From NCBI RefSeq assembly GCF_035285525.1, contig NZ_JAYKGW010000092.1, forward strand, positions 1 to 32,000: a stretch of 32,000 bases of DNA. Reading direction: 5' to 3'. This DNA is from Okeania sp. (lineage in GTDB: Bacteria > Cyanobacteriota > Cyanobacteriia > Cyanobacteriales > Microcoleaceae). A program made the position numbers and the translations under genes. Numbering within the stretch: position 1 is the first letter of the stretch; each line of letters opens with the position of its first letter. Below, piece after piece: positions 518 to 28,472 of this stretch. Under the pieces are notes generated by a model. It worked only from the letters and a program-made list of their open reading frames with translations, was not told the DNA's origin and did not search any database.

Positions 518-876
518 GACATTGATTAACTCTTTTACGATTCCAAATCTGGTATAAATCTACCCGTTATACCCCTCGCTCTAGAGACTTTGCATTCAAG
601 GTCTCTACAGCGTTTTCGTATTTTTTTGTAAACGGGTTTGTTGCACTCTGATTTGATATGACATCCTCTGGAACTTCTTTGTGCAAGGTAAGCCTGGAGG
701 TCTCTTCTAGGCCAATTTTTTAGAATCGTGCATACTTTTTGACTTAATGTACTGGTAAGCTATCTATGTGAATAAGCCAAAATTATAACTTTCTAAGTTA
801 TAGAAATTAAATAACTATTTTTTGATTAATATTAGTTTTAGTTATAAAATTAAGTGCTACAAAAATAAGTTTGTTA

Positions 877-1881
877 ATGGATATCAATAATATTAAAACT
901 AACCACACTAAAGATGCTCTTGGAACAGGTAATCAGAATATTCTCTCGAAATCCTGTACAGATGTGGATCATTTCAAAGAATTTTTTGATTATAAAAATA
1001 AAGAAATAATACAACTCACTCCTGGTTTTGTTAAAGCTGAGTTTTTGTCGATTCAGGTTGGTGACATATTTTTTTTATTTCATCAGGTGAACCAGGGATT
1101 TCAATTTTCAGGTGATGGTACAAAGGAATACATAGCGTTTGCGATAATTTGGTCTGAAAATGAAAGGGAATATTACTCCTGTCGTCACCCTGTCGAACCT
1201 CAAAAAACTGTTTTTGGTTTCAATAACACTGAAGCACACGAAATATTTCTTCAAGGTGGAGCATTTACAAACATTTTTATCCCTGTTACAACTTTTGATG
1301 CTTATGCAAACCAACTACAACGCCACGATCTAGACGATAATTTCCGCAGTAAAAATCATGTCAACTTGCCTCTAACTGCGATGAAAGAAATTAAAGATTA
1401 CCTGAAACCACTGATTTGGCTAGCAGTACACCAACCTACTTGGTTTCAAAACCCTCATATTGAAAAACTCGTTGCCGATGATTTCGTTCCTTTGTTGATT
1501 AGTAAAATTCCCATTAAGTTAAATTCTAAGTCTTTTCTCAAACCTTCCCGAAGAGCAAAATTGATTGCCAAAGCTGAAAAAGAGATGTTAGCGCACTTAG
1601 ATAAACCTTTGACTTTAAAACAACTCGCTGAAAATTTAGAGTCTAGCAGTTGTGCATTATCTTTTGGTTTTAAAGACTTATTTGGTGTGAGTCCGATGCG
1701 CTATCTCAAGATACGACGACTTAATGCAGTGCGACAACACCTGAAGGTAAGGGAACCCGAAAATTGTACCATTGTCTTCCTTGCTAATGAATATGGGTTC
1801 TACTGTCCGAGTCATTTTACTAGAGATTACAAAGCTATGTTTGGGGAGTTGCCTTCAGAGACGTTGCGAAAGAAAGCATAG
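877..1881 (+). CDS. AraC family transcriptional regulator
   Basis: The C-terminal ~100 aa is a typical AraC/XylS double helix-turn-helix (LTLKQLAENLESSSCALSFGFKDLFGVSPMRYLKIRRLNAVRQHL ... ANEYGFYCPSHFTRDYKAMFGELPSE). I do not recognise the N-terminal ~230 aa. The ORF track starts at TTG 871; the ATG at 877 is the more likely start. Confidence 0.85.
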   Translation: MDINNIKTNHTKDALGTGNQNILSKSCTDVDHFKEFFDYKNKEIIQLTPGFVKAEFLSIQVGDIFFLFHQVNQGFQFSGDGTKEYIAFAIIWSENEREYYSCRHPVEPQKTVFGFNNTEAHEIFLQGGAFTNIFIPVTTFDAYANQLQRHDLDDNFRSKNHVNLPLTAMKEIKDYLKPLIWLAVHQPTWFQNPHIEKLVADDFVPLLISKIPIKLNSKSFLKPSRRAKLIAKAEKEMLAHLDKPLTLKQLAENLESSSCALSFGFKDLFGVSPMRYLKIRRLNAVRQHLKVREPENCTIVFLANEYGFYCPSHFTRDYKAMFGELPSETLRKKA

Positions 1882-2011
1882 AGAGGAGAAAAAAATCACG
1901 GAACATGAAAGTTGTGTTACTAAGACTAAACTTCACGACAACTAAGCTATAGTAATAGTCCATCTATGTAACTTCGGAAAATATCAATTTAATTTTCCAG
2001 TGATTGTGAAC

Positions 2012-2064
2012 AAAAAAAACCTCCACCAAAGCTAGGCAGAGGTTGCTTCCAGGGTGCATCTACC
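2012..2064 (-). ncRNA. NsiR1-like small RNA, copy 1
   Basis: Minus strand: TCCGGA at 2100-2095, conserved transcript core TAGATGCACCCTGGAAGC, terminator hairpin AACCTCTGCC/GGTGGAGGTT, then a T8 run (A-run 2012-2019 on the plus strand). The 5' end is estimated to +/-5 nt from where inter-copy conservation begins. Confidence 0.55.
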
Positions 2065-2134
2065 TCTTCTTTTTTCTCAGTTCATCTATGTAACTCCGGA
2101 AAATCATCAATTTAATTTTCCAGTGTTTGTGAAC

Positions 2135-2188
2135 AAAAAAAACCTCCACCAACGCCAGGTGAAGGTTATCTATCAGGGTGCATCTACA
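2135..2188 (-). ncRNA. NsiR1-like small RNA, copy 2 (diverged stem)
   Basis: Same layout, with TCCGGA at 2224-2219. The terminator stem is weakened (aacctcc...gaaggtt) and the region just 5' of the stem differs (atctatcagggtg instead of gcttccagggtg). Confidence 0.45.
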
Positions 2189-2258
2189 ATTTTCTTTTTC
2201 CTAAGTTTCTCTATTAACTCCGGAAAATCATCAATTTAATTTTCCAGTGGTTGTGAAC

Positions 2259-2310
2259 AAAAAAACCTCCACCAACGCTAGGCAGAGGTTACTTCCAGGG
2301 TGCATCTACC
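2259..2310 (-). ncRNA. NsiR1-like small RNA, copy 3 (promoter element mutated)
   Basis: The transcript and terminator are intact, with a T7 run. The upstream hexamer is TCCAGA/TCTGGA (2340-2345) rather than TCCGGA, and a MITE lies immediately upstream in transcript sense (2360-2514). Confidence 0.4.
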
Positions 2311-2359
2311 TTTTCCTTTTCTTCAGTTCCTCTATCAACTCCAGAAAATCATCAATTTA

Positions 2360-2514
2360 CAGCGCTTTTCACTCTTGATGAACCACCGGAGCCATAATCA
2401 AAATATAGTAGGGACGTTGGATAACAAAAATGCGTTTTCCGTTCCGGAATGCTCCGCAAACATGTCGCGTAGCGATATGTCCCTACTGTGGTTTACCGTG
2501 CAGGAAAACCGCTG
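2360..2514. mobile_element. 155-bp MITE with CAGCGsTTTTC terminal inverted repeats and a TA target-site duplication, inserted in the sRNA array
   Basis: The TIRs are cagcgcttttc (2360-) and gaaaaccgctg (-2514). They are flanked by TA (2358-2359) and TA (2515-2516). Removing the element and one TA restores the unit sequence caatttaatttttcag exactly. The interior contains a GTAGGGACG...TGTCCCTAC hairpin (2408-2486). Confidence 0.7.
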
Positions 2515-2540
2515 TAATTTTTCAGTGGTTATTTGGGAGC

Positions 2541-2594
2541 AAAAAAAAACCTCCACCAACATTAGGCAGAGGTTGCTTCCAGGGTGCATCTACA
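2541..2594 (-). ncRNA. NsiR1-like small RNA, copy 4
   Basis: TCCGGA at 2630-2625, conserved core, and a 10-bp stem (two G-U pairs) with a 7-nt loop and a T9 run (A-run 2541-2549 on the plus strand). Confidence 0.6.
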
Positions 2595-2667
2595 ATTTTC
2601 TTTTTCCTAATTTTCTCTATTAACTCCGGAAAATATCAATTTAATTTTTCAGTGGTTATTTGGGAGC

Positions 2668-2720
2668 AAAAAAAACCTCCACCAACATTAGGCAGAGGTT
2701 GCTTCCAGGGTGCATCTACA
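2668..2720 (-). ncRNA. NsiR1-like small RNA, copy 5
   Basis: TCCGGA at 2756-2751. The unit is nearly identical to copy 4, with the terminator stem followed by a T8 run. Confidence 0.6.
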
Positions 2721-2766
2721 ATTTTCTTTTTCCTAAGTTTCTCTATTAACTCCGGAAAATATCAAT

Positions 2767-2887
2767 AGGACTTATGCATGAACGCTATTGGTAGGGTGTG
2801 TTTTGCGTTCCGCAAAGCTACGCGACATATAAAGCCTATCTCGTAACTAAGCAATACTCCATATATAGTGCCTTTGCGTAAGTCCTG
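2767..2887. mobile_element. ~120-bp MITE of the AGGACTTAyGCA TIR family, flanked by an ATCAAT duplication, inserted in the sRNA array
   Basis: The TIRs are aggacttatgca (2767-) and tgcgtaagtcct (-2886). ATCAAT at 2761-2766 is repeated at 2888-2893. Uninterrupted units read aaaatatcaatttaattt, which serves as the empty site. Confidence 0.7.
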
Positions 2888-2920
2888 ATCAATTTAATTT
2901 TTCAGTTGTTATTTAGGAGC

Positions 2921-2973
2921 AAAAAAAACCTCCACCAACATTAGGCAGAGGTTGCTTCCAGGGTGCATCTAGT
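2921..2973 (-). ncRNA. NsiR1-like small RNA, copy 6
   Basis: TCCGGA at 3007-3002. Same core and terminator, with a 3-nt shorter promoter-proximal region (catctagtttt instead of catctacaatttt). Confidence 0.55.
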
Positions 2974-3112
2974 TTTCTTTTTCCTAAGTTTGTCTATTAA
3001 CTCCGGAAAATATCAATTTAATTTTTGATACCAAATCCGGTTATTAGAAAGTTATTTTCCAAATTTATCTCTAATTCTTGGCGCGGGGTCGCACCGCTGC
3101 TGCCCTCTGCCT

Positions 3113-3889
3113 TTATATTTGATGTCGGTGAATCATTGTGCCATTGGCCTGATCTGTCGGAACTACCAATAACTCACTTATATTAACATGGAGCGATCGC
3201 GTCGTACAAAAAAATACTAAGTCTGCGATATCATCTCCGGTCAAAGGTGTCAAGTCTTTGTAAACATTCTTAGCTTTTTCTGCATCCCCATGAAACCGGA
3301 CTTCACTAAATTCTGTTTCGACTAAACCTGGTTGAATTTCAGTTACTCGGACTGGAGTTCCTAATAAATCCTGTTTTAAACCCTCAGAAATTGCCCTAAC
3401 AGCCGCTTTAGAAGCACAATAAACATTACCTCCAGGATAGGCAGCACGACCAGCAATAGAACCAATATTGACTACATGACCTCGACCTCGACTTACCATT
3501 CCTGGAACTATATAACGAGTCATATATAGCAATCCTTTAATATTAGTATCAATCATTTCTTCCCAATCGTTGAAGTCGCCGAGATGGAGTTTATCTAAAC
3601 CCCGACTTAAGCCAGCATTATTAATTAAAATATCAATATTTTGCCAAGGTTCAAGTAAAGAATTTATTGCGGATTCAACTGCTAGGCGATCGCGCACATC
3701 TAGCTTTAATAAATAAACTTTACTTGGGAATTTTTTAGTTAATTCATCAGCAAGTTTTTCTAATTTTTCTTGACGACGAGCAACTAAAATTAGTTTGGCT
3801 CCTGCTTCAGCAAATATCTTGGCACAAGATTCTCCAATACCACTACTTGCACCTGTAATTAAAACTATTTGATCTTTAATAGAAATCAT
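3113..3889 (-). CDS. SDR family NAD(P)-dependent oxidoreductase (YdfG / 3-hydroxy-acid dehydrogenase-like)
   Basis: It has a TGASSGIG cofactor motif near the N-terminus, an NNAG motif, the catalytic Y-x3-K (YCASK), and a typical classical-SDR length of 258 aa. Confidence 0.9.
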   Translation of the reverse strand: MISIKDQIVLITGASSGIGESCAKIFAEAGAKLILVARRQEKLEKLADELTKKFPSKVYLLKLDVRDRLAVESAINSLLEPWQNIDILINNAGLSRGLDKLHLGDFNDWEEMIDTNIKGLLYMTRYIVPGMVSRGRGHVVNIGSIAGRAAYPGGNVYCASKAAVRAISEGLKQDLLGTPVRVTEIQPGLVETEFSEVRFHGDAEKAKNVYKDLTPLTGDDIADLVFFCTTRSLHVNISELLVVPTDQANGTMIHRHQI

Positions 3890-4054
3890 TTTTACTATTA
3901 CAAATTTTGATTGGTTTTCCTAATTTTTAACACCATATTATAACTTTATTTTGACAGTTATAATTAGAGTTATTAGGAGTTACGCAGAAACAACATATTT
4001 ACATATTTAGGGAATAGCAGAATATAAATTATCCGAGTTTTCTACCTAACCTCT

Positions 4055-4110
4055 GTAGGGACGTTTTGCTGCGCAACATGAAACGCATTTTTGTTATGCA
4101 ACGTCCCTAC
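4055..4110. repeat. GTAGGGACGTT ... AACGTCCCTAC palindromic dispersed repeat
   Basis: Inverted arms gtagggacgtt/aacgtccctac with a ~34-nt loop. Shorter-loop copies lie at 28545-28572 and 30333-30360, and a diverged copy lies inside the MITE at 2408-2486. Confidence 0.7.
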
Positions 4111-4333
4111 TCCTCCCTATTTTTATAACTAAATGGGATAATTTTTACTTGGAAGTCCCTTAGTAGGAGTGAATAAAAATCACCCCGCCAACTTTAGGCG
4201 ATGTTCAGAGTTACATCCCCCTTAACTTTGGGGGAGTTTAAGGGTTTTGTTCCTCCCAAAATTGAGAGGCTTGGGGGCTTGCATCATAACCCATAACCCT
4301 ACGCAGGACAATTATAGGATTCATAGGAAAGCC

Positions 4334-4368
4334 AAGAAACCCGGTTTTTTTGAAAAACCGGGTTTCTT
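4334..4368. repeat. Perfect 16-bp-arm palindrome (AAGAAACCCGGTTTTT ttg AAAAACCGGGTTTCTT), GAAACCCGG repeat family
   Basis: Read directly from the sequence. Related GAAACC(C)GGTTTC palindromes lie at ~385-400, 491-505 and 25908-25946. It could act as a bidirectional terminator or insulator in the long intergenic region. Confidence 0.6.
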
Positions 4369-4461
4369 TATTTAGCAATGAGGGTAATAATCTCAAGAGC
4401 AATAATATAGAATCCGTTTACATACCTCAAAAGTTAGAAGGGAAGAGGAAGGATTTTTTTT

Positions 4462-4623
4462 ATGGCTAATTATTACAATATAATGTCATACCAATTGCAA
4501 TACATTAGCACTATACTTGGGCAATACTTCAGCCATCAACTAGATAGCACAAGTCGAATCACTTTTTTGTTAATTTTAGCTAATTTAATGTTAATTATTG
4601 TTATGTTTGCTTGTCCTGTATAA
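4462..4623 (+). CDS. Possible 53-aa small membrane protein (speculative)
   Basis: ATG 4462 to TAA 4621-4623 translates as MANYYNIMSYQLQYISTILGQYFSHQLDSTSRITFLLILANLMLIIVMFACPV. A purine-rich stretch (ggaagaggaagga) lies ~10 nt upstream and the C-terminal segment is hydrophobic and helix-length. It falls below the ORF-track cutoff and I recognise no homology. Confidence 0.2.
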   Translation: MANYYNIMSYQLQYISTILGQYFSHQLDSTSRITFLLILANLMLIIVMFACPV

Positions 4624-4888
4624 ACCTTGTATGCAGCCTCTAGATCCTACTCTCCGGCTCAACAAGATGTAAAAAAGTTTTTGATAAAAAGTATTATTCG
4701 GAGGCTATATAAAAATATTTCCGATTTATTTACTTTCTGTTGTTAGCTTAGAAATAACAAGGCATTCAACCCGAATTGAATCTTAGTCAAGGGCTTTTTT
4801 AGCACATTTTTTTAGATCATCAAGTAATTAATTAAAAAATAATTAAAACCAGCTTTAATTATTAATAAAAATTAATGTTCTAATTCTC

Positions 4889-4916
4889 TTGACAAACCCA
4901 AATATTGTGTTAGATT
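4889..4916 (+). promoter_or_regulatory. Candidate sigma70-type promoter for the giant exoprotein gene
   Basis: TTGACA (4889-4894), a 16-nt spacer, then TAGATT (4911-4916), in an AT-rich tract ~270 nt upstream of ATG 5184. A second candidate is TTGACA 5000-5005 with TACTAA 5023-5028. This is sequence match only. Confidence 0.3.
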
Positions 4917-5183
4917 TGAACTTCAATAGAGTTTAGTTTAACAATTATCAAAGTTAATTAAGTACAAAGGCTAGTAAACTTGAACAGCCAAAACTCATAT
5001 TGACATATTGAAAAGATTTAATTACTAAATATCGGCGATTTCTCGGGATCTAGCTGAGTTGTGGGGAGCCATTTCAAGTCTCCTTTCTCTAGGGGAATCG
5101 CGAGTATATTTGACTCAAAAGAAAAATATTAAATAAACAAATAACTAACTACTAACCGCTGAGAAAAAAGGAAAACAAACATC

Positions 5184-6026
5184 ATGGCAAATGTAAGTTA
5201 TAACTTCGGTAGCCCCAAATTTACTCCCATTATTAAAGAAGCAACCAATAAACAGATTCTTTTATTAGATGGAGTCAACGATTATCTTGAAATTCCCGAT
5301 GCCAATGCTATTGACTTTGGCACGAATCAAAACTTTACCGTTGAGTCTTGGTTCAAAGTCGATCCGAGTCAAAATACCGAAGGCGACATCATCGAAAAAT
5401 GGAAAGACCCCACTGGCTATCCTTATGTGATTCGCTACGATGGAGGCAGTGGTAAAGTCGTTGCTGCTCGCTACGATCGCTCTAATAATCCTAGTATTGT
5501 TTCGACGAGAACTTTTAACGATGGCCAATCTCATCACGTTGCTTTTGTCAAAGATGGTAATCAATTAAAACTTTACGTTGATGGCCAACTAGACGGAACG
5601 ACTACAGACACCACAACGGGTAATACCCAAAATAACTCGCCTCTGTTCATTGGTAATCGAGGAGGTATTGCCAACCATTTCAAAGGCGAAATAGAGGAAC
5701 TCCGCATTTGGAATGTGGCCCGGACTCCAGCAGAAATCCAGAGCAACTTAAACACAACTTTCCAAGGGACTGAAGCAGGGCTGGCAGGTTATTGGAATTT
5801 TGACCAGGATAATATCGATGGGACGATCGCTCAGGATGCTACGGCTAATGGCAATGACGGTACTCTCAAAAATGGGGCGAAGTTGGAGATAGATGACTCT
5901 TTCATCGGTTATGTAGAGATAGTTTTGGACCAAGCGGTGACTGTTGCACCGGGGGCTATTATTGAATATCGGATTGAGGGGCCTCTACTGCTACCCAACA
6001 GACAGATTTTTATAATGCTCAATTAG
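5184..6026 (+). CDS. N-terminal fragment of the giant RTX exoprotein: LamG (concanavalin A-like lectin) cassette 1 plus the start of a Calx-beta domain, cut off by a frame change
   Basis: LLLDGVNDYLEIPDANAIDF...FTVESWFKV...HHVAFVKDGNQLKLYVDG...ELRIWNVART...GYWNFD is a LamG/Laminin_G_3-type module ~85% identical in DNA to the cassettes at 6219-6765 and 8347-8905. The ORF ends in nonsense-looking residues (PLLLPNRQIFIMLN). The -1 frame, open from 5978, continues the Calx-beta domain. Confidence 0.85.
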   Translation: MANVSYNFGSPKFTPIIKEATNKQILLLDGVNDYLEIPDANAIDFGTNQNFTVESWFKVDPSQNTEGDIIEKWKDPTGYPYVIRYDGGSGKVVAARYDRSNNPSIVSTRTFNDGQSHHVAFVKDGNQLKLYVDGQLDGTTTDTTTGNTQNNSPLFIGNRGGIANHFKGEIEELRIWNVARTPAEIQSNLNTTFQGTEAGLAGYWNFDQDNIDGTIAQDATANGNDGTLKNGAKLEIDDSFIGYVEIVLDQAVTVAPGAIIEYRIEGPLLLPNRQIFIMLN

Positions 6027-6103
6027 ATGTCAGCACCACCGATGGGAATCCACCAACTAATTCTGTTTTTATTCCTCAAGGGGAAAATACAGCCCGCATC
6101 CAC

Positions 6104-9100
6104 TTGACAGCTTTATCGGATGCGGTGGTCGAGGGAGACGAAAACGTTAAAATTACTCTACTTTCTGGTACGGACGCTTTTGGTGGAACTTACAACCTTG
6201 CTAATAACCGGGAAGTCTTATCTTTAAACGGTACGACCGATTATGTGGAAATTCCCGATGCCAATGCTATCGATTTCACCAAGGATCAAAACTTTACTGT
6301 TGAGTCTTGGGTGAAAGTCGATCCGAGCCAAAATACCGAAGCTGACATATTTGAAAAATGGAGCGGTCCTGGTGGCTATCCTTATGTGATTCGCTTAGAC
6401 GGAAGCACTGGTAAAATCAATGCTGCTCGCTACGATGGTTCTCGTAATCCTAGTATTGTTTCGACTGCAACTTTGAACGACGCACAATATCATCACATTG
6501 CTTTTGTCAAAGAAGGTTCGGTTCTCAAACTTTACATTGATGGTAAGCTAGACGGAACGACTACAGATACGACGACTGGCAATACCCAAAACAGCTCACC
6601 CCTTTTTGTCGGTCAGCGGGGAGATAATAGTAACCGTTTCAACGGGGAAGTTGACGAACTCCGCATCTGGAATATATCTCGCACTCAAAACGAAATTCGC
6701 CAGAATATGTATGGCTCTCTGACTGGGAATGAAGTCGGTTTGGCCGGTTATTGGAGTTTTGACTCAGGAAGTGTTAATGGTAATACGATTACAGATTTAA
6801 GCTCTAACAACAATAATGGTACTCTGAATTCTTCTAATAACAAAGCTCTGTTAACAACAGGAACGGCACCGCTTAATCTAGATTCATTCGTCAACTACGA
6901 CAATATATATCCTGCTATCAGTAGAGGGTCTGCTACCCTTACATCTTCCACACAAGTAACAGGGCAAGTAAACCACTATATGGAACTAGGAGGTAATGCT
7001 ACCACAGACCTGGCTTTTGCTGGAACAGCTAACTACACGATCGCGGCTTGGGTGAAGCCAGACGGTGAAGGAACCATTGTAGGTAAACATAACAGTGGAG
7101 TAATTGGTTCCCATTTCCTTAGAGTCCAAAATGATGGACGTATTCAGGCTCATCGCGAAGTTTCCCCGTGGGAGTTGGTTTCTGATACTGCTATTCCCTT
7201 CGGTCAGTGGAGTCATGTAGCGACCACTTATGATGGTGCGACGCTAAAAATTTATATTAACGGTCAACTATCAGGTTCTCGGGCTTTTGGTGCTCAAGTT
7301 AGTACCGATACTCAAACTCCCGTAATCGTTGGGGCGCGTCAAAGTAGTGGAAACCCAATTGATATTTTACCAGGCTCTATTGATGAGGTGCAAATATGGA
7401 ATAAGGCTCTATCAGAAACTGAAATTCAAAACGCCCAGGGTCGTTCTATATCAGGAAACGAATCGGGACTTGTGGGATATTGGGATTTTAATGCCAGTGA
7501 TAGTAGTGGAGCTAGCGTTGTTGACTTGAGTGGCAACGGCTATAATGGTACAGTTAAAGCTGAAGTTGCAGACCTAACTTATATAGGACATTACTCAAAT
7601 GGAGGTAGATTATCCTTTAATCTTTCTGGACGCACACTTTCTAGCACACCAAATGTTATTGGTACGCTCACCTCCGTATTAACAGATAACCCAGAACCAA
7701 GTTTTTTCATCCAATCTTCCGATCCATCTGTCTCCTTCTTTGTAGAAGACAGTTCTGCCTATCAAGCAGGTATAGCTTTTAGCGATCGCTTTGGAGACCA
7801 AATAACAGCTAACAACGCCATTGTGGCCGACAGCCAAGGTGAAGCCACCTTCCAAGTCAAACTCACCTCCCAACCCACTAACAACGTAACCATTAATCTC
7901 ACGTCAGGAAGTGGGACTCTCAACAACAATAGCCTGACCTTCACCCCCAATAACTGGGATACTTATAAAACCGTCAACGTCACTGGTTTGGGAGCAACCT
8001 TCAATAACTTCAACGTCAGCGCCAGTGTCACCAGTAATGACAGTAAGTATAGCAGCTTAAGCAACTCTACATTAGGTGTCATCGACTCTACCCCAAGGGA
8101 CACCACTAAAATCAAAGTAACAGAAGGAGCAGTAGAACAAGACATCCCTCCTATAATTGCTACCGTTAGTGCCTCTCAAGACGCCCAGGAAGGACAGCCA
8201 GAACCAGGTCAGTTTACAGTTAATTTGAGCGATATTGCTCCCCAAGGCGGATACGTTGTCCCCTATAAAGTATCCGGCGGTACGGCCACAGAAGGCACTG
8301 ATTACAACGTTACTACCAGTGACAATAATACCAAGCTGGGAAAAAGTCTGAACCTGGACGGACAAAACGATTATCTGGAAATTCCCGATACCAATGCCAT
8401 TGATTTTGCTAAAGACCAAAACTTTACCGTTGAGTCTTGGGTACAAGCCGATCCCAATCAAACACCAGGGGGCAATACCGACCGTGACATCATTGAAAAA
8501 TGGAGTGGCCCCGGTGGCTATCCTTATGTGATTCGCTACGACAGAAATAACGGTAAAATCGTTGCTGCTCGCTGGGATGGTACAAATGGTCCTGCCATTG
8601 TTTCTACGAAAACTCTTAACGATGGACAATATCATCACATTGCTTTTGTCAAAGATGGTTCTGCTCTAAAACTTTATATTGACGGTCAGCTAGAGGGAAC
8701 GACTACAGATACAACCACTGGGAATACCCAAAATAATTCGCCCTTGTTTATTGGTAATCGAGGAGGTGTGGCGAACCATTTCAAAGGGAAAGTTGACGAA
8801 CTCCGCATCTGGAATGTGGCGCGAACCGAAGCCGAAATCCAGGACAGCTTAAATGCTACCTTCACAGGGAACGAAACTGGCTTAGTTGGCTATTGGAACT
8901 TTAATAATGATAGCGGCACAACTGCAACGGATTTAACCAGTAATAATAATGACGGCACATTAAAGAATGGTGCGTCTTTGGTTGACAGCAGTATCGGTTT
9001 GCTAAAAATAGATGCGGGTCAAACCTCAACCAATATTGGTATCGAAGCCATAGATAACCAAATTGCTCAAGGGGATAAAACCGTAACCGTAGCTATAGAA

Positions 9101-12100
9101 AGGAGTAACCCCGCGAGCCAAGCAACCCTAAATATCAAAGATGACGAAAAAGCAGGAATAGAATTTGCCCAACTCAGCAAAACAGCTACTATCGAAGTTC
9201 CCGCTATCAAATTAGAAGTAACCACTGCTTACAATTCTAGCACGGGAGCGATCGGCTTAAAAATCGCCCAAGGCGCTCAAAGCTATACTTTTGCAGCCGA
9301 CACCACCATAACCTTTACTAATGGTGTCGAAATAATTATTCCGGCTGGCACGACTCTGAGTAATAATGCAGCCACAGTCACTGTCGCCCAAAATCTAGGC
9401 AGTATCCCCATTGCCGAAACCAGCACTACGGAAAATCGGCTGTTGGATGTAGGCATTCTCTCCTACAACGAAGATTCTAACGGCAACGTCACCGCCAACG
9501 TCCAAGTACGTTTAACCCAAAGACCAGCGGGAAATATCAGTGTCACCCTTACTGATGCTAACGGTAGCGACAGTGCCATTTTCAACTTCACCAATACTAA
9601 CTGGAATAAATACCAACAAACCAACGCCAGCAACTTCCTACAATTAACCTCTGCCAACAACGCAGTTGCTTTAACCGCCAAAGTTGGCAACGCTAATACC
9701 ATTAACTTGCCTTTATCAGCTAACGTTGTGGCAACTCCATTAGGAAATATCAACACTGGTACTGGCAACCAACTGATAACCACAGAAGGGGAACGAATAG
9801 AATTTACTGCTACCAAAGCCTACGATGCTAACGCGGGTACTGTAGAAATAGAACTATTCAACCGTTCTAGCGATTACACCCTTACTGCGGATCAAGTTAT
9901 CGTCTTCAATAACGGTACTCAGGCACGAGTTACAACAGACACCGCCCTGAAATTAGGTCAGGCAAAAGCAGTTCCTGTAACCCTAACTCAGGGCACAGCT
10001 ATTCCTGTTAACCAAGAAGGTTCGGTAGTATTGCCGTCAGGTGAAACTACGGTGGCAGTGCGGTTGTCGTCACAACCTACTAGTGGCAATGTGGGTTTAG
10101 ATTTAACTATCGACAACAGCAGGGAAGGTAAATTTAAGAGCAACAATACCCAAGCCGAAACCCTCACCTTCACTCAGCAAAACTGGAACCAGTACCAAGA
10201 AGTGACAGTGAAAGGGGAAGACGATCTACTTGTTGATGGTAATATAACTTACAATTTGAACGTCAAAGGTCAAAACGGCAACGCTGACAGCAATTATAAG
10301 GGTACCTTACTACAATCCATATCAATAACTAACGAAGATAACGACAGAACTCCCGATCCAACCCAAACAACTAACAATTTCAACCAACCTCCGATAATTG
10401 CCGATCTGACCGCAGATAAAACCCAGATCGACGAAAATGGCGGTAAAGTTATTGCTACCTTCAAGTTAAACAAACCCGCACCTGTAGGAGGCTTAAACAT
10501 TGAATATGAAGTCATCAGTGAAACTGCATCGACTTCACAAGACTTGCAAACACCTTTTGTGTTTGTAGAGAACAACCCCTTAAGTATGGCGGATCGAATA
10601 CCACCAGCTAATTTGGCATCAACTAATGGCGATTACCTACCGTCAATCGTTCCAGTTTTTGTGGACTGGGATCAGGACGGAGATTTAGATGTTTTTGGAG
10701 GGGAATACGCATTTTTCAAGCCAGCTTACACCGAAGGTATTACTTATTACGAAAACACAGGGGATAAAAACAATCCTGTATTTGTACAACGCACTGGCGC
10801 CCAAAATCCTTTGAGCAGCATTGTTAATATTGATGCTCCTGCTCCCGCATTTATAGATATTGGTAACGATGGAGATTTAGACGTTTTTATTGGCGATGTA
10901 GATGGGCAAATTCACTACTTTGAAAATACGGCTTCTGGATTCGTGAAAAGAACCGGGGCTAATAATCCTTTTAATTCTATAAATGGTGGCGATCCAGCCA
11001 GACGCTTTCCCCTTACTCCTACTTTTGTAGATATAGATGCGGATAAAGATTTAGATTTCTTTGCAGTGTATCGGGATGGAATAGCTCGAGATACAGTTGT
11101 TTTCTTTGAAAATAATGGAGGGAATTTTGTTCAACGCACTGGAGCAGATAATCCCCTAAATGGAAAAGGAAGTATTGATGGTGCCGTAAAATTTGGAGAC
11201 CTAGATAACGATGGCGATTTTGATGCAGTTTTTGATGGTGTCTATGGAACAGTTTACTATCGAAACATAGGAAATGCTATAAATCCAGTTTTTGAAATCA
11301 GTGAGCAACTTTCCCCATTTAGGGGATTGGGTCTCAATATTTTTGGGCGACTGGACTTAGTAGATATTGATAACGATAACCAATTAGAGTTGTTCGTTGG
11401 TTATCGTAACGTGGCGTTTTACGAGCAGTTGTCCTACCAGAACCCGCTTACAGTTAATATACCTGAAGGTAAATCGCAAGCAACTGTCGAGATTAGAGCG
11501 ATGGATGACGCCATCGTAGAAAACAAAGAAAACTTCACCGTTCGACTGATTGACAGAAATGATGAAAGCGATGTCAATGAGACCCTAACTCTCGAAGTAA
11601 CAGAAAACTATCAGGTATACACTCCTCCAGGAAGTCAAAGTTTTTCTAGCAACTCTGTCGGGCTGCAAATTAAACAGTCAAGCACTTTACCGAAAAACCT
11701 GGTAACAACAGATAATCGTTTCAAAATAACCAATGCTTTTGATTCTGTTAACAAAAAAGTAACCTTAGATATCAATAATGCCAGCGGCTCTATTGCAATC
11801 CCAGCAGGAGAAACACTGACATTTAAAAATGGCACCGTTGTAGAAGTGAGTACTGCTACTACTGTGCAAGCAGGAAGCCCTCAAGTAGTGAATGTTGTAC
11901 TCAAAGAAGTTCCTCCTTATAGTATCCCTCTAGGCACTCAACTGACATTCAACGACGGTAGTAAAGTCACTGTCGCCGAAACAATATCAATATCTGCTTT
12001 CAATAGCACATCAGTGCAAGTACAAGCGCAAAGCGACACTGCTCTCCAGCCTAATACAGGAGATACAACTAAACTCAGTCGCAGCAACCAATTGCGAACA

Positions 12101-15100
12101 TTTGTAAATGTAGATGTTACCAGCGCTTATGACGGATCGACCGATAGCAACCTGCAACTGAAGTTAAACGAAAGCCAACTAAATAAATTCACCCTAAAAC
12201 AGGGAACCGAAATAAGTTTCAACAACGGACAAACCATTGTTACTGTTGGCAGTGATACAGAAATAAACCCATCGACAGCCACAGCAGTACCAGTAACTAC
12301 AACCAGTGCAACCAAAACCATAGCTGCCAACCAAAGCACAACAGCCAGCACCCCATTTGAAGCCCAAATAACCATCCTTGACAACGACACTCCTGGAGTT
12401 CGTGTCACCACCGATTTAGCTAGCAAAAACGTCGTTTCTGGCACATTCAACACCACCGAAGCTGGAGGGGAGCAAACGTTCTACTCTCGCCTAGAAAGCG
12501 AACCCCTAGAACCAGTATCAGTGTTTGTGGGTAGTAGCAAGAAAGAGGAAGGATTATTAGATGGCAAAGAAGTCATCGAACTCCAATTTGACAGAACCAA
12601 CTGGAATATTCCCCAAGCATTTACAGTCAAAGGTGTCGATGACCTAATTCAAGACGGCAATGTTGCCTACAACCTGAAAACCACTGTCGAAAGTCGTGGC
12701 GACCTCAACTATCGCGAAGGCGCAATAGATATTGATGTCCTCCAAGGCTTAAATAACGGTAAAGTTCAACTAGAACTAAACGAACTCAACATAGAGAAAG
12801 CTCAACTACCTCAAGGAACTAAGTTAAACTTCAGTAACGGTACTGTAGCCACAGTAGGTCAAACCGTCACCCTAGATAATGACGAAACTAACACTCCAGT
12901 TGATGTCAGTGTCACCATAGAACCAAACACCCTGGGATTTGGTGCCACAAGCAGCAACGGTAGTTGGCAGGTAAGCGAAGCATATAACCACGGCCTCAAA
13001 CAGGTAGAATTAAGAAATACCACTGGCAACCCCATCACCCTCACCAAAAACCAAACCATCAAATTTAACAACGGTGGGGAACTGAGAATAGATGCAGACA
13101 TCACTATCGCCGAAAACAGTCGGGACTTAGCTAAGGCTACATTAACGACAAACCCCAATACGCTCCCACTCCTAGCAGTAGGCACAACTAATAATAACGG
13201 TAACTTTGAAGTAACTACCACCTACAACAACACCCAAAAACAATTAGGATTAAAAAATACCACCGGTACTGCCAAGAATCTCAAAACAGGAGATATTATC
13301 AGCTTTACCGACGGTACATCTTTCATTGTAACTACGGATGTGACGATTGCAGCCAACAGTACGAGTAAGGTATCGGGTGCATTAGAGGTATCTGGACTGA
13401 CAACCTCCTTCATTAAAGACATCTCCCCAGATATCAACCTCAGTAACACCGACAACGATGTCGCCGGCCTAGTTTTAGTAAACGTAGAAGAAATAGCAGC
13501 CAAAGAGGGAGTTTCTAACAACTTCTATAAAGTCGAGCTAAAAACTGAACCCACAGATACTGTCACCGTAGTAATGACGCCCTCCGACGACCAAATCGCC
13601 CTAGAAGGGAAACTTCCCGGAGAACCTTTAACTATTACTTACGATGCCACTAACTGGAATGTTCCCCAAACCATCGGCGTCACCGCAGTAGATGACTTTG
13701 AAGTAGAATTTGACCATACCACAAATATTGCCTTCGACACCTCTAATAGTGCCGACAGTGTTTACGCAGGATTGAACGTTAGCAATGCTGGAGTCAAAGT
13801 CAATATTATTGACAACGATTTACCAACAGCCAGCGTCTTGTCAGTAGCAGGAGCCATAGAAGCAAACGCCCCCGGTTACTTCACCATCAACCTAGATAAA
13901 CCCCTGCCAGACAAATTCGATGACACAGGTTTAAAAATCAACTACACCGTCAGTGGTACTGCGGATACGAATGGAGTCAGTCCTACAGATGACCTGCAAC
14001 CCATAGCTACCGGAAGCGCTCGTATTGCTCCTGGAGAAAGTAGAACGCCATTGATAGCCTTCCCCATAGATGACTTCAAAGCAGAAGGTACTCCTTTAGA
14101 GGTTGTCGGTGCTTACAATGGAACCAGCATCAGCCTGAAAGTCAAAAATGGCGTCAGTTTAGATAATCCAGCTACGAGCGTGGTAGAGAATACAGTCACT
14201 CTGAAGGCAGGAACGAAATTAACCTTTAGTAATGGAGCGATCGGAACAGTTGGCAGTGACGTTACTTTCAACCAAACAGGCAATAAAGCAGTTAATATTA
14301 CCAAAGCTCCGGAAAGTTCCAAAGCCCTAAATACCATTGCTGTTGCGGATACCACTCGCATTGCTTCAGAAACAGTAATCGTTGAAGTTACTGCCGGAAA
14401 TGGCTACCAAGTCAGTAGCGACGAAAATATTGCTACCCTAGAAATAGAGGATAATGATATCCCTGGAGTGCGGGTAGTGGAGGCATCGGAACGAACTACC
14501 GTCACTGAAGGAGAAGCACCAGCCCAATACTTCATCTCCCTCTTGACTGAACCCACTGCTGACGTTACGATTAATATCGCCCCAGTGCAAAAAACTCGAA
14601 ATTTAACTGTTACCAAAGATTTAAGTGGTGGTGTAGTAGAGTTAAAAGTTAACGATCCTAAAGTTAACTCTCTCTTGTTGCCAGTAGGAACAGTCCTCAA
14701 TTTTGGTGGTGGTAAAACAGCAACCGTAGCAGCGGATACTTTCGTAGGTTCAAAGGGGAATAGCGTTAATGTCAACACTGTCTCTGGCAGCATTACCACA
14801 GGGAACACGACCACCTATTCTTACCAAGAACTATCATCTACCAACTCCCTAACATTTAACTCCAACAACTGGTATCAGTTACAGCCAGTTAACGTTACAG
14901 GTTTAGATGACAACGTAGCCGAAGTCGGAAATACCCATGAGGCGACCCTAGAATATACCATCACCAGTGGCGACAGTGACTACAACAATCTCAAGGTTCC
15001 AGCTCAGATTATTGATATTAAAGATCGTCCTTTCGATCCCAATACCACCGCTAGCAGTCTCACCCAAGGATTACTAACATTCCAAGAGAGTCTCGACACC

Positions 15101-18100
15101 CTCAGTCTGCCTCTGATAGGAACACTAGAAGGTACAGCTCCTCCCTTTATCCGCAACGTTATTACTGACGTAGTAGCAGAAGTGCGGGCGATGGAGTTCG
15201 TGACTGGAGAAAAACTAGCCAAAGCCTTCACTAACTCATTTAACAACAACATCAACAATGGTGGAGCAGTAACCGTAGAAATCACCGATCTATCGAGCAG
15301 CAATATTAGCTTTAAAGTTAACGCGACAGACAAGTTCAATAACACACCCATATCTCTCGCCAGCGATTTAGGATTGCCTGCATTAGGCATTGGTATGGAA
15401 ACAAATGGTAACCTCAATGCCAACTTTGACTACAACTTCGACTTCGCTTTCGGACTCAATGACACCGACGGTTTCTATATAGATACCGCCAATACTAACC
15501 TCAATGCCAATGCCGCAGTTAAATTAAGCGACAACTTCAATGCTAAAGGTAGCTTAGGCTTTTTGCAACTGGATATGACTAACGGTATCAATGTTGCTCA
15601 AGGAGACACCAAAGGAACGGAAGTCAATGCTACTTTCGATATTGGCTTAAAAGACGCCAACAACAAACTAACCGTAACCGAATTGAAAAACTTGCGTAAA
15701 CAAGGAAAGCTATCGAGCATTCTTGATTATGGTTTCGCTGGGGATGCAGCTTTAGACGTGGATGTAGTTACCTCAGTCAAAGGCAGCACAGCATTACCAT
15801 CTTACAGTTTCAATCTCTTTAGTGACTTACCGCTGTTCAACTATACCAATGCAGCTCAACAACCACCTCAACCCACAACCGTATCCATTGCCGGATCGAC
15901 TAATGTCAGCATTGAAGAAAAAACGGCTAAGTCAATTAACATCAGCATTGCCGACAACGGTAACAATAAGCCTAACGAAAATATCCGACTGCCAAAAGGC
16001 ACTCAGTTAGTCTTCACCTGGGGTAACAATAATCAAGAGACAGCCATCATAGATAAAACTGTCACCATCGCTGAAGGTAGCATCGGTGCAGCCTTAGTTA
16101 AACTGAAAAGTGATAACGTCAAAGACAACAATAAAACAGTAACCATTAATAGTAATGCTAGTGCCAAGTTAGAAGCAGGTGCATTTAATATCGCTTTCAA
16201 TAACATGACCTTAGACTTTGGTAGCTTTGTTACCGGAGTAGTCAGCCCCGTAGTCGATTTCCTTGCCAACGTTGTCGAACCCATTACCCCTGTAGTCAAT
16301 GCCCTCAACGAGCCAATAGGTTTCTTCAACGACGTCGGTTTAACATCAGAATTTGACCAAAACGGCGACGGACAAGCAAATATTATCGAAGTCGCAGGCA
16401 CTATTATCGAAAAACTGCCTTCTCGTGGTGGTAAAGCCAAAATTGATTACATCCAATTCTTCGATGCCATTGTCGGCGTCACTGAGTTAGTCGGAGCAGT
16501 GAAAGACTTGCAAAGTAGCCTCGGAGCTGGAAACAACTTTGCTATCGACTTTGGCAGCTATACCCTACAAAACTTCCAAGGTGCTTCTCCCACCACCAGC
16601 GCTGCTGATGTCAACCCCCAAACCCAAGGCAGCAGTCAACTCAACTCTAATACCAGAAACCAAAGCCAAAATAAAGGTTTGGGCAAACAAAGCCTTTCTC
16701 AAAAGGTTGATAAAATGTTTGGCGCCTTAGACAAACTCGGTATTAGCATCCCCGTCTTGGAAGACCCCTTCACTGCTATCAACCTCTTCCTGGGCAACGA
16801 CATCGACTTGATTACCTACGATATGCCAGCCTTGGATATCCAATACGAAATTAATAACAAGTTCACAATTCTAAATTTACCGCCAGTAGATGGATTAATT
16901 CAAGGTGAATTTTCCGTGTTTTCAGATTTAGTCTTCGGTTTGGATACAGTAGGTTTCAGCGCTTGGGAGAAAACAGGATTCGACCCAGCTCAAAGCTATC
17001 TAGTCTTAGACGGTTTATACCTCAGTGATGTAGACCCCAATACGGGTGTAGATGTGGATGAGCTTTCCGTCGATGCTACAATGGCAATAGGAGCCAAACT
17101 GAATGCGGTAGTTGCTTCGGCTACAGTTCTCGGTGGCATCACGGGTGAAGTTGGTTTGGATGTGGTAGATATCGGGGAATACACCGGACAAAGCGATGGT
17201 AAGATTCGGGGTTCCGAAGTGTTCTCACGGATTAGTAATCCTTTGAGTCTGTTCGAGTTAGCAGGTTCCATTGAAGCATTCTTCCGGGCTATTGTGAAAG
17301 TCGGAGTAGATTTAGGTTTCTTTGAAATCACCAAGACAGTTTACGATAAAGAATTGGCTCGCGTTCCCATCTTTGAGTTTGCTCTGGGAGGTGCCCCAGG
17401 TGGTGGCGGTAGTACAGGTGGCGGTAGCGGTAGCAATGCCGGTACTGCTGCTAGCGGTTATATTGAGGGAGGGACAGTATTTCTGGATACTAACTTTAAT
17501 TTAGCACCAGATCCCCTAGAACCGAAGACAACTACGGACGAGTTAGGAAACTATAATCTGGAGTTTGAACTGGCATTATTTGATGCCAATGAAAATGGCA
17601 AAATAGATGATGATGAAGGTCAAATTGTGGTAGTTGGTGGTACAGATGTAACTACTGGTTTGCCTCTAGCTATTTCTCTGGTTGGTAATGCCACAACTGG
17701 CAGTGTGGTGACACCTATTACTACCATTAAAAATGGTTTGGAACAACTAGGTTTAGATGTGAAAACTGCCAACAAAATCCTCAGTAAAACTTTGGGATTA
17801 GATTCAGACTTAGACGATTTCGATGCTTATGAAGCGCAAGGAGAAGACTTGACGGTAGGAGTAAATACAGCTCTATCTCATATCTTGCTGCACAGTTTAA
17901 CAATTAACGGTGCTGCCTTCTTAAAAGGCGCTGGTTTTGATGGCAATGCTGCCGAATCTGCGAAAATTTTAACCGATGCAATTGTTAAAAAATTAAGCAC
18001 GGAAGATGAGGTGGAATTAGAAGAAAAAGCTGATATTGAAGCTATTTTCAATTCTGCTCTTCAGGAGATAGGAATAGATTCTGTCGATCCCACAACTGTG

Positions 18101-19963: not shown

Positions 19964-20068
19964 TTTACAGCGGTTTTTATTTCAGTAGATGAGAGTAGGG
20001 GCGAAATGGCATTCCTCCTTACTAAACCGTTTCATATCATGTCCGGTTAAGTAATTACTGCAATAGCT

Positions 20069-20097
20069 GTAGGTTGGGTTGAGGGACGAAACCCAAC
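20069..20097. repeat. GTAGGTTGGGT-N-ACCCAAC palindromic dispersed repeat
   Basis: The sequence gtaggttgggttgagggacgaaacccaac also occurs, in inverted orientation and as two tandem copies, at 31088-31165. Confidence 0.7.
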
Positions 20098-20108
20098 AAT
20101 AATTTTTC

Positions 20109-20187
20109 TCCCCTACTCCCCTACTCCCCTACTTCCCTACTTCCCTACTTCCCTACTCCTACTCCCCTACTCCCCTACTTCCCTACA
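20109..20187. repeat. Tandem octamer repeat (C/T)CCCTACT, ~10 units
   Basis: cccctact x3, tccctact x3, cctact, cccctact x2, tccctac. It lies between the two convergent genes and supplies the last codons and the stop of the minus-strand ORF ending at 20175. Confidence 0.9.
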
Positions 20188-21026
20188 TCAATAACTCTTA
20201 AACGATAGGTACTAATAGAAATACCACCTTTTCGCATTAAAACTGCTGACAACCACTTATCTTCAGAATTTTCTGGAGCTTCACCAATTTTAAAAAGTCC
20301 GCCAGAAGACAATAATTCTAAAGTAAAATCAGTCGGTTCAAAATTATAAGAATTTTCATTAATTGGTTCTACCAAAGCAGCCCCTAAAATAATTTCTTCA
20401 CCCAAAGGTTCTTGAACAACCGCATCAAAATTATACTTTTCACCTGGTTTTACTTCTGCTGGTAAATTAATATTAACATTAGGTGGTTTTTCACCTGTTG
20501 TGATTTGATTTTCCTCGGCTAAAATTTCTTGTTCAACAATTTTTCCATTTTCATAACGCTGCTTAGAAGTAATAGTAGACTTTAGAGTAAAGTCTCTATT
20601 TTTAATTTTTTGCACACCAGTAATATAGGTAATAGTTTCTGCCACAATAGTATTACCATCATTTTCCCAAGATTGAACTTTTGTCTGATATTTAACTGAC
20701 TTATATAGTCGCCAAAAATTAGCTAAAGCTTTAGCTAAACTTTCCCGATTTAAACCATCAGAATTGGTAAAATCATTACTATAAAAATTTATGACATTTT
20801 CTAAGTTTTGACCACTGGCAGCTCGATCAATTTCTTGCAATAATTCTGTAAGTTTTTTAGGTGCTTGTTCTGGAGTTTTAGCTAATGTCAAATTAGAGGA
20901 AAAAACTACCCCGACAAAAACTGTTAAACTAAGTAATAATGAACTAGATAATGTTGTTGAGAATTGTTTAAACTTCATCGAAAATTTGCTTTGCATTTGA
21001 AAAATATTCATTTGTAATTTATACAT
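20175..21026 (-). CDS. Hypothetical secreted protein (signal peptide; possible NTF2-like N-terminal domain)
   Basis: The likely true start is the ATG at 20978 (MKFKQFSTTLSSSLLLSLTVFVGVVFSSNLTLA|KTPEQ), which is a signal-peptide-like N-terminus. The region INFYSNDFTNSDGLNRESLAKALANFWRLYKSVKYQ... weakly resembles NTF2/SnoaL-like folds. I recognise no confident family. Confidence 0.6.
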   Translation of the reverse strand: MYKLQMNIFQMQSKFSMKFKQFSTTLSSSLLLSLTVFVGVVFSSNLTLAKTPEQAPKKLTELLQEIDRAASGQNLENVINFYSNDFTNSDGLNRESLAKALANFWRLYKSVKYQTKVQSWENDGNTIVAETITYITGVQKIKNRDFTLKSTITSKQRYENGKIVEQEILAEENQITTGEKPPNVNINLPAEVKPGEKYNFDAVVQEPLGEEIILGAALVEPINENSYNFEPTDFTLELLSSGGLFKIGEAPENSEDKWLSAVLMRKGGISISTYRLRVIDVGK

Positions 21027-28079: not shown

Positions 28080-28472
28080 AGGACCTACGCAAAGGTACTA
28101 CATAAGGAGTATTAGTGCCTTACGAAGTAGGGTAACGCACCCTACTCGACCGCTTCATCTAAAATGGTGCAATAGGTAGGGGCGGGTTTGATCAGAAATT
28201 TTCATCTCTTTCTAGGATTTACATAAACCCGCCCCTGAGACGTTGGCTTACATCACTGGGGGCGGGTTTATCTAGTTTACTAAGAAAGCTCGTTAACTCA
28301 CTTGTAAAACCCGCCCCTACTGCATTGTTTCATCTTAATGGTGTAATAGGAAGTTGGCCTGAGATTGCTTTCGGTCCGGAATGCTACGCAAACACATTCC
28401 TTCGCAATGACAAGTCTAATGCACTATTTTAGGTGAAATAGTCCACTACCAATAGCGTTTATGCGTAAGTAC
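28080..28472. mobile_element. ~390-bp composite MITE of the AGGAyyTACGCA TIR family carrying two nested GGGGCGGGTTT...AAACCCGCCCC hairpin repeats
   Basis: The ends aggacctacgca (28080-) and tgcgtaagtac (-28472) and the subterminal sequence match the 2767-2887 element in reverse orientation (acttacgcataaacgctattggtag / acttatgcatgaacgctattggtag). The nested hairpins are at 28178-28236 and 28258-28320. Confidence 0.6.

Follow-up and report, generated by a model that had tools for sequence, protein, structure and literature searches.

The sRNA (small RNA) NsiR1 belongs to Nostoc/Anabaena sp. PCC 7120 and was reportedly treated by Ionescu et al. 2010. The present analysis concerns an array of NsiR1-like genes on the minus strand (1957-3026) of a 32-kb stretch of DNA, positions 1 to 32,000 of contig NZ_JAYKGW010000092.1, which is referred to below as the window. 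Sequence comparisons make it likely that this is an amplified array of NsiR1-family sRNA genes in a Trichodesmium/Okeania-clade host without heterocysts, composed of self-contained units with HetZ-type promoters whose products would be trans-acting sibling RNAs. NsiR1 and the TCCGGA (DIF1) promoter are textbook heterocyst markers, and here they occur in six copies in a relative of Trichodesmium; what appears to be new is a DIF1/HetZ-type NsiR1 array unlinked from hetF in a non-heterocystous diazotroph clade.

In Nostoc/Anabaena sp. PCC 7120, NsiR1 (Rfam RF02399; Brenes-Alvarez et al. 2020, 2022) begins with the same 5' UAGAUGCACCCUG as the units described here and continues into a terminator hairpin. 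As in the array, it is present in tandem copies, each with its own TCCGGA (DIF1) -35 element and terminator, and the copies diverge in the single-stranded part of the RNA ('sibling' sRNAs). Different targets of sibling NsiR1 copies have been documented in Nostoc (PMC9045159), where diverged copies repress hetF and the hetP-like alr3234 through base pairing, and NsiR1.1 is antisense to the hetF leader. In the Nostoc literature, NsiR1 is further characterized by an induction upon nitrogen step-down that depends on HetR and NtcA and is confined to differentiating cells. The literature places NsiR1 'in the vicinity of hetF', as a trait of heterocyst-forming cyanobacteria. Unlike Nostoc NsiR1, the array lies beside a short-chain dehydrogenase/reductase (SDR) gene with no adjacent hetF, in an apparently non-heterocystous host; two miniature inverted-repeat transposable elements (MITEs) sit among its six copies, and five copies have a central GGAAGC segment seen nowhere else. 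Multicopy sibling sRNAs are also known from E. coli, Pseudomonas, Bacillus and Sinorhizobium (PMC9045159), in which near-identical genes have additive or partly diverged targets; in contrast to the array, they are unrelated in sequence, are seldom tandem complete transcription units and depend on other sigma factors.

Regarding the promoters, HetZ has been shown in Anabaena to be an extracytoplasmic function (ECF)-type sigma factor with TCCGGA as its -35 element (2026 study, PMC13342950). Its consensus comprises the -35 element T-35 CCGG A-30 and, 16-17 bp apart, the -10 element 'TGnA', in which T-13 is replaceable by A (PMC13342950). In Anabaena, the HetZ-dependent DIF1/DIF+ class (Mitschke 2011; Wegelius 2018; Hu et al. 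2026) carries TCCGGA at -35 to -30, likewise found in the array, although recognition by HetZ has been demonstrated only for Anabaena promoters.

Sequence features of the array

Five of the six units (c1 to c6, in order of increasing coordinates) matched the Rfam RF02399 (NsiR1) covariance model with 42.5-50.4 bits, above the gathering score of 39, and c6 reached 36.2 bits (E = 6e-5) in a permissive search, under that score; no other match in the window exceeded an Rfam gathering score. The Rfam matches therefore indicate that the NsiR1-family assignment, which a preliminary description of the window had already proposed, is correct at the level of sequence and structure. The tandem organization of NsiR1 was also recovered, with six copies of one sRNA unit on the minus strand at an overall period of 122-126 nt and two MITE-like interruptions. 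Tandem Repeats Finder reported one block at 1963-2359 (period 123, 3.2 copies, 86% matches, score 601) and a second at 2515-2766 (period 126, 2.0 copies, 98% matches, score 490), and a 99-nt core was found six times, in register, with start-to-start spacings of 124, 122, 284, 126 and 253. Given these uneven spacings, the array consists of 3+2+1 units rather than a clean head-to-tail run; thus, the earlier picture of a six-copy head-to-tail array holds for the six minus-strand units (1960-3026) and fails for their continuity, which the two insertions break.

The hexamer TCCGGA was located 36-38 nt before TAGATG in five of the six units, and the earlier claim of a TCCGGA-type promoter and a terminator of its own for each unit was confirmed, with the hexamer being exact in those five. 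One changed copy had also been reported and is indeed present (c3), its minus-strand reading being TCTGGA; TCCAGA, as given before, is the plus-strand reading. Downstream of the hexamer, all six units carry AGGA (spacer 16) or AGAA (spacer 17), and where 0.54 matches to the pattern TCCGGA-N16/17-[TA]GNA would be expected in the window, six are present, five of them array promoters. The remaining match (TCCGGA-N17-AGGA, 25444-25470, minus strand) lies antisense within an MscS-type channel gene (23786-25864, plus strand) and may have arisen by chance or represent an antisense promoter of this type. In a set of 62 loci covering many cyanobacteria, the -10-type 4-mer peaked at spacers 16 (21 loci) and 17 (14 loci), while spacers 8-15 and 18 accounted for 0-3 loci each. 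Moreover, a distance of 35 nt from the hexamer's first base gives 2065, 2189, 2595 and 2721, exactly the 5' ends of the Rfam matches of c1, c2, c4 and c5, and the starts predicted in this way for c3 and c6 differ by 1-2 nt from the Rfam-match 5' ends. The array promoters thereby display the HetZ-type (DIF1) promoter sequence, sharing with the Anabaena HetZ promoters a TGnA-like -10 element 16-17 bp on. Positions C-33 and G-31 are not among the change-tolerant positions of HetZ promoters (PMC13342950), and weak promoter activity is therefore predicted for c3 (C-33 to T) as well as for an orphan promoter fragment at the array end (G-31 to A). Ordinary sigma-70 promoters were considered and rejected, with one weak match against 2.6 expected.

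The predicted RNAs are about 52-55 nt long, in agreement with the ~50-55 nt proposed previously, and combine the traits of NsiR1, namely an RNA of ~60 nt, a 5' UAGAUGCACCCUG and a Rho-independent terminator. All six units share the segment TAGATGCACCCTG (13 nt) without any change, followed by GAAGC in c1, c4, c5 and c6, GAAGT in c3 and ATAGAT in c2; owing to these continuations in c2 and c3, the invariant stretch of 18 nt described before had to be shortened to 13 nt. Each unit ends in a hairpin whose 10-bp stem contains 5 G-C pairs and closes a 7-nt loop, with a stretch of 7-9 U after it. Six terminator-like sites were detected, all of them on the minus strand, compared with 1.1 +/- 0.9 in shuffled sequences, which agrees with the terminators described before for the minus strand only. 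A weakened terminator stem had also been claimed for one copy, and this was not the case: every position of the c2 stem AACCUUCACC/GGUGGAGGUU is paired, and c2 folds at -15.4 kcal/mol compared with -15.7 kcal/mol for c4 and c5. Compared with the hetF-linked units of Nostocales (60-63 nt, 43-78 bits, mostly 62-78, with 31 of 35 above 60 bits), the RNAs of the array are shorter and score lower (54 nt, 36-50 bits).

Pairwise identities were 84-89% within c1-c3, 92-96% within c4-c6 and 77-81% between both groups, supporting the two sequence subfamilies recognized earlier. Unit c2 is a mosaic, with a promoter identical to that of c5 and a spacer of the c1/c3 type, and the RNAs of c4 and c5 are identical, so that the six units encode five distinct RNAs. 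Unit c1 (2012-2100) has its hexamer at 2100-2095 with AGAA 17 nt on, a predicted RNA at 2065-2012 (54 nt), a central GGAAGC and a terminator stem at 2044-2018, and scored highest on the NsiR1 model (50.4 bits). Unit c2 (2135-2224; 44.1 bits) has its hexamer at 2224-2219, AGGA 16 nt on, and a predicted RNA at 2189-2135 (55 nt) with the central segment GAUAGAUAACC, the type that relatives also have. In c3 (2258-2345; 44.8 bits), the mutated hexamer at 2345-2340 precedes AGAA by 17 nt and a predicted RNA at 2311-2258 with a central GGAAGU. The remaining units all have AGGA 16 nt after TCCGGA: c4 (2542-2630; hexamer 2630-2625; predicted RNA 2595-2542) and c5 (2668-2756; hexamer 2756-2751; predicted RNA 2721-2668) both scored 42.5 bits, and c6 (2921-3026; hexamer 3007-3002; predicted RNA ~2974-2921; 36.2 bits) stands apart from all other units by a leader shortened by 2 nt and by the loss of the 5' mini-helix (AACUAGAUG). 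At the distal array end, an orphan seventh promoter fragment (1957-1990, minus strand) with the hexamer TCCGAA (1978-1973) and no RNA body matches 2079-2104 at 92% and points toward the 3' end of an AraC-type gene. Plus-strand open reading frames (ORFs) within the array (61-112 aa) span repeats and MITEs and had no NCBIfam family match; a protein-coding role was rejected, in keeping with their earlier description as repeat artefacts.

Both insertions have the properties of MITEs, being short and non-coding with inverted repeats, a target-site duplication and further copies. Insertion 1 (2360-2514, 155 bp, minus strand) lies within the AT-rich spacer upstream of the c3 promoter and has a terminal inverted repeat CAGCG[G/C]TTTTC (10/12 matching), a TA/TA flanking duplication, a fold energy of -46 kcal/mol and partial copies at 4081-4111, 28369-28394 and 30993-31017. 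Insertion 2 (2767-2886, 120 bp, minus strand) is located 11 nt upstream of the c5 hexamer, with a terminal inverted repeat AGGACTTA[C/T]GCA (11/12 matching) and an ATTGAT flanking duplication, and a ~390-bp element at ~28080-28470 is bounded by the same termini. A further TCCGGA at 2448-2443, inside insertion 1 and without an RNA body, was treated as a chance occurrence and not as a promoter.

The conservation of the units bears on whether the array is functional. In an alignment of the six window units with nine units of relatives, mean identity was 96% for the hexamer and 100% for the RNA 5' 13-mer, compared with 44% for the central RNA segment and 53% for the downstream spacer. Per-sequence folding yielded a hairpin of at least 6 bp before the U-tract in 57 of 60 loci, with 52 distinct sequences, indicating that the structure has been kept and the sequence has not. 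In every relative the central segment is of the AUAGAU or AUGGAU type, as it is in c2, which therefore keeps the ancestral type, with the five GGAAGC/GGAAGU copies being, on this comparison, a derived variant amplified in this lineage. As such, the array records the evolution of an sRNA family, in which one ancestral-type copy was retained, a new variant was amplified and mobile elements spared the functional parts. It is unlikely that the array is instead a decaying or selfish repeat, that is, a relic amplified by unequal crossing-over, invaded by MITEs and unexpressed or functionless. Such decay would account for the two MITEs, the mutated hexamer, the truncated seventh unit, the sixth unit below the Rfam threshold and a derived variant seen nowhere else, and a decayed unit in Trichodesmium erythraeum IMS101 shows that units of this locus can decay. 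Against it stand the intact hexamers (5/6), -10 elements (6/6), 13-nt 5' segments (6/6) and terminators (6/6), the preserved pairing despite the stem changes in c2, and the far stronger conservation of promoter and RNA 5' end than of spacers. Likewise, both MITEs lie in AT-rich spacer 11-16 nt upstream of a hexamer, with all hexamers, RNA bodies and terminators left untouched.

Host clade and orthologous units

The array was placed correctly by the preliminary description between an AraC regulator and an SDR gene, as Pfam domains revealed. The SDR gene (3113-3889, minus strand; adh_short) lies upstream of the array on the same strand and is the synteny anchor to Trichodesmium, and the AraC-type regulator gene (871-1881, plus strand; HTH_18 and HTH_AraC) is convergent with the array. 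The SDR gene shares 86% protein and 86.5% DNA identity with that of T. erythraeum IMS101, and 90.5% DNA identity with that of a relative locus (L129). The window is syntenic with IMS101 over four genes at 81-86% nucleotide identity; the synteny continues on a contig from a marine metagenome, identical to IMS101, where an NsiR1-like unit is followed in turn by SDR, a homologue of window 20175-21026, murG and an MscS-type channel gene. The AraC-type gene is missing at the orthologous position in IMS101, where an IS630-type transposase is found instead. In addition, NdhD4 shares 92% identity with its counterparts in Okeania spp. and IMS101 and at most 81% with that of every other named cyanobacterium listed, Nostocales included; two further database entries match it at 94-95%.

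The Trichodesmium/Okeania clade comprises filamentous cyanobacteria without heterocysts. Synteny and NdhD4 identity therefore point to a host of this clade, and thus to one without heterocysts; the earlier label of a 'heterocyst sRNA locus' had to be abandoned, since the heterocyst-forming host of typical NsiR1 was not found here. A heterocyst-specific NsiR1 locus of a Nostocales host that had moved away from hetF would be the conventional reading of Rfam NsiR1 matches and TCCGGA hexamers, both of which are tied to heterocysts in the literature. However, the four-gene synteny, the NdhD4 identities, the GC content of the window (0.33-0.38 outside a giant gene), the short, lower-scoring units relative to canonical ones and the presence of an orthologous unit in IMS101 all argue against this origin, which is highly improbable.

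At the orthologous position in IMS101 (NC_008312.1 ~310,760-310,940, minus strand), one intact and one decayed unit were found. The intact unit scored 53.5 bits, with TCCGGA 37 nt before TAGATG. As in the window, this locus is directly downstream of the same SDR gene and has the promoter ATTTCCGGAGT...GGGAAAGAGAAAAAG, and its RNA resembles that of c2, the best-matching window unit (83.6%). IMS101 differs from the window in lacking both the GGAAGC variant and the 16-kb block on the far side of the SDR gene, and in having a transposase in place of the AraC-type gene. The decayed IMS101 unit (L038 6756-6830, minus strand) comes after the intact one and carries TCTGGA, the same C-33 to T change as c3, followed by GCAGATGCACTTT without a terminator. 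Other metagenome relatives have one to three units, some beside an ABC-ATPase or IS605 TnpB gene, and the c2 central segment matches units of two relative loci (L127 and L124b).

These neighbourhoods bear on a possible cis role, in which the array would mainly serve as a terminator battery or as a source of antisense transcription or interference between the convergent AraC-type and SDR genes, for example antisense to AraC read-through in resemblance to NsiR1.1 of Nostoc. The convergence of the array with the AraC-type gene, the orphan promoter (1957-1990) directed into the 3' end of that gene and the documented antisense action of NsiR1.1 on hetF are in its favor. By contrast, the units of IMS101, L129 and L124-L127 stand beside unrelated genes (transposase, ABC ATPase, IS605 TnpB), so that the array neighbour is not conserved, and the hexamer of the orphan promoter carries a mutation. 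In addition, 90-odd loci in differing contexts have the invariant 5' 13-mer in common, which is more in line with a trans-acting seed or a protein-binding site than with local antisense. A predominantly cis role is thus quite unlikely.

hetF linkage and NsiR1-like genes elsewhere

In eight Nostocales-type loci, HetF (NCBIfam NF045509 or a match to a HetF hidden Markov model, HMM) is encoded divergently beside a canonical NsiR1 array. In the 32-kb window, hetF was not found by tblastn or the HetF HMM, as the preliminary description had stated, and instead of a divergent hetF the array has the SDR and AraC-type genes as neighbours. IMS101 is reported to have hetR, hetC, hetF and patB (PMC3655545), its hetF lying elsewhere in the genome, and with Crinalium HetF as a query no Trichodesmium entry appeared among the best 120 of 1,841 matches.

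In the non-heterocystous Crinalium (L022 4384-7221, minus strand, and 7489, plus strand), a full-length HetF homologue (946 aa, E = 1.6e-221 with the HetF HMM) is divergent from, and ~270 bp away from, a single TCCGGA-driven NsiR1-like gene. A metagenome-assembled genome of Elainellales (L045 2-115, minus strand, and 447, plus strand) probably shows the start of the same arrangement of hetF and an NsiR1-like gene. On the basis of these two arrangements, the linkage of hetF and NsiR1 may predate heterocysts. Furthermore, Nostoc sp. FACHB-280 (L060 2199-3825) has a three-copy canonical NsiR1 array beside genes for a 417-aa ECF-like sigma factor and an NAD kinase, not beside hetF; the sigma factor had no PDB sequence match.

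The distribution of the family was surveyed by a 14-mer scan of one genome per species, which samples cyanobacterial loci and yields counts that are lower bounds. Results revealed at least 26 non-Nostocales cyanobacterial loci in which a perfect TCCGGA precedes UAGAUGCACCCUG by 36-39 nt and a T-run comes after it, and at least 12 further non-Nostocales loci with a one-mismatch hexamer, mostly TCCTGA. Short arrays occur in Lyngbya sp. PCC 8106 (four units), Microcoleus (four), Symploca SIO2C1 (seven), Coleofasciculaceae (at least five) and Plectonema (three), and many of the non-Nostocales loci exceed the Rfam NsiR1 gathering score. TCCGGA-driven NsiR1-like genes are thus widespread in non-heterocystous filamentous cyanobacteria, and in such hosts TCCGGA cannot mean 'heterocyst-specific'. 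The genes of Lyngbya PCC 8106, Symploca SIO2C1, Microcoleus, Coleofasciculaceae and Crinalium, as well as RNA162 of Limnospira, share with the array TCCGGA or TCCTGA 36-39 nt before UAGAUGCACCCUG and a following terminator, and all of them exceed the Rfam gathering score; they differ from it in hairpin sequence and neighbour genes, the Crinalium gene being adjacent to the hetF homologue. In Limnospira, an NsiR1-like RNA of 57 nt has been reported to be expressed and stress-responsive in the absence of N2 fixation or heterocysts (PMC8400943), the one exception to the heterocyst-bound descriptions of NsiR1 in the literature consulted. Among the papers available to us, none linked NsiR1, DIF1 or TCCGGA to Trichodesmium.

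A second NsiR1-like class was observed in Scytonema sp. HK-05 (L099 3839-4750), in L079, L075 and L076, and at ~20 further loci. It has the same 5' UAGAUGCACCCUGAUG and a terminator, with the palindrome GGGGTGACACCCC and a TATAnT -10 element replacing TCCGGA, and is often tandem, as in Scytonema with seven copies at a 143-nt period. Members of this class scored 35-38 bits on the Rfam NsiR1 model, just below the gathering score, and matched no other Rfam family. Moreover, Nostocales harbor a single-copy NsiR1-like gene of 51 nt (L001, L044, L078, L082, L094, L096, L103 and L107, Raphidiopsis brookii D9 among these loci) that is separate from the hetF-linked arrays and has TCCGGA 37 nt before TAGATG. 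Its neighbours are cobM (precorrin-4 methyltransferase), divergent upstream in 8/8 loci, and lgt, downstream in all seven loci covered.

Possible roles of the array and other features of the window

The preferred interpretation, an array of self-contained, trans-acting NsiR1-family genes, would operate as follows. Each unit would comprise a -35 TCCGGA (DIF1), an AG(G/A)A -10 element and a start 35 nt from the first base of the hexamer, and a Rho-independent terminator would end it to give an RNA of 52-55 nt. A HetZ-type sigma factor would read these promoters, and dependence on HetZ is probable judging from the promoter elements. The RNA would have three parts, namely the invariant 5' UAGAUGCACCCUG, probably single-stranded, a copy-variable central segment and the terminator hairpin. 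By analogy with Nostoc NsiR1, the RNAs would most likely be trans-acting and pair with translation-initiation regions of mRNAs. With one ancestral-type copy and five variants, the array therefore probably provides high-dosage 'sibling' sRNAs with partly different targets. Family membership, the anatomy of promoters and terminators, the host clade, the absence of hetF from the window and the conservation of promoter and RNA 5' end among relatives are shown by the sequence comparisons, and transcription, dependence on HetZ or HetR, any induction by nitrogen stress or restriction to diazocytes, and the targets are inferences.

Several observations weigh against this interpretation. Four of the six units do not preserve the 3-bp 5' helix of the Rfam model. 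At -13, the array -10 elements have A where the consensus has T, an exchange that Anabaena HetZ promoters reportedly tolerate, and in the 62-locus set a second 4-mer peak at spacer 23 corresponds to a purine-rich stretch before the start site; this purine-rich region inflates chance -10 matches and calls for caution. In c3, the change of C-33 to T is probably damaging, going by the promoter positions reported for HetZ, and this change could, like the MITEs inserted 11-16 nt upstream of hexamers, reflect a loosening of constraint in parts of the array. RNAalifold applied to a MAFFT alignment of 13 diverse RNAs gave -2.1 kcal/mol with misaligned stems and no convincing covariation. In addition, a 28-mer of the derived variant (TAGATGCACCCTGGAAGYAACCTCTGCC) had no match in the metagenome scan, so that no cross-species conservation stands behind this variant, and the IMS101 differential RNA sequencing paper contains no mention of an NsiR1-like RNA.

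A doubtful yet tangible possibility is that the circuit is unrelated to N2-fixing cell specialization, with the array being the high-dosage output of another filament-level programme, for example fragmentation or necridia, a response to stress in general, or one to nitrogen that involves all cells. This possibility differs from the preferred interpretation solely in the biological trigger. It gains from the TCCGGA-driven NsiR1-like genes in many taxa without N2 fixation in specialized cells and from the stress-responsive Limnospira RNA (PMC8400943). The genes hetR, hetZ and patU3 have been reported in most section III filamentous strains of a set with IMS101 among its members, and the same source gives their role in such strains as unknown (PMC12669612). 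Moreover, the DIF1 hexamer alone is insufficient for cell-specific expression in Nostoc (PMC6133370). None of the present results speaks directly against this possibility; in Trichodesmium, the expression of hetR is said to have been linked to diazocyte development (El-Shehawy 2003).

Regarding a link to specialized cells, the array raises a further, rather speculative scenario. Conceivably, a module from HetR through HetZ and the DIF1 promoter to NsiR1 predates heterocysts, is on only in diazocytes and helps to commit them, with the array as its amplified and partly retargeted output; we regard this as rather doubtful. If it were true, the ~70-nt array promoter would be a ready-made diazocyte marker. 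In the parts of the literature available to us, whether Trichodesmium sets aside specialized N2-fixing cells is disputed. With its short promoter and small RNA, the array offers a practical probe for the role of hetR/hetZ/patU, and of the hetR-hetZ circuit in filaments without heterocysts, as well as for cell specialization in Trichodesmium.

Beyond the array, a ~16-kb block (3948-20189) of the window encodes a 280-aa Laminin_G_3 protein and a giant protein of 4,619 aa, with a higher GC content of 0.41-0.44. It is missing at the syntenic site in T. erythraeum (L038/L128) and in the relative L129, and its right edge falls on the octamer repeat (CTCCCCTA)x10 (20108-20186). Lastly, a 43-nt unit (GTTGGGTTTCGTCCCTCCACCCAACC...) is repeated 1.9 times at 31088-31169, directly downstream of an FtsH-like gene fragment.

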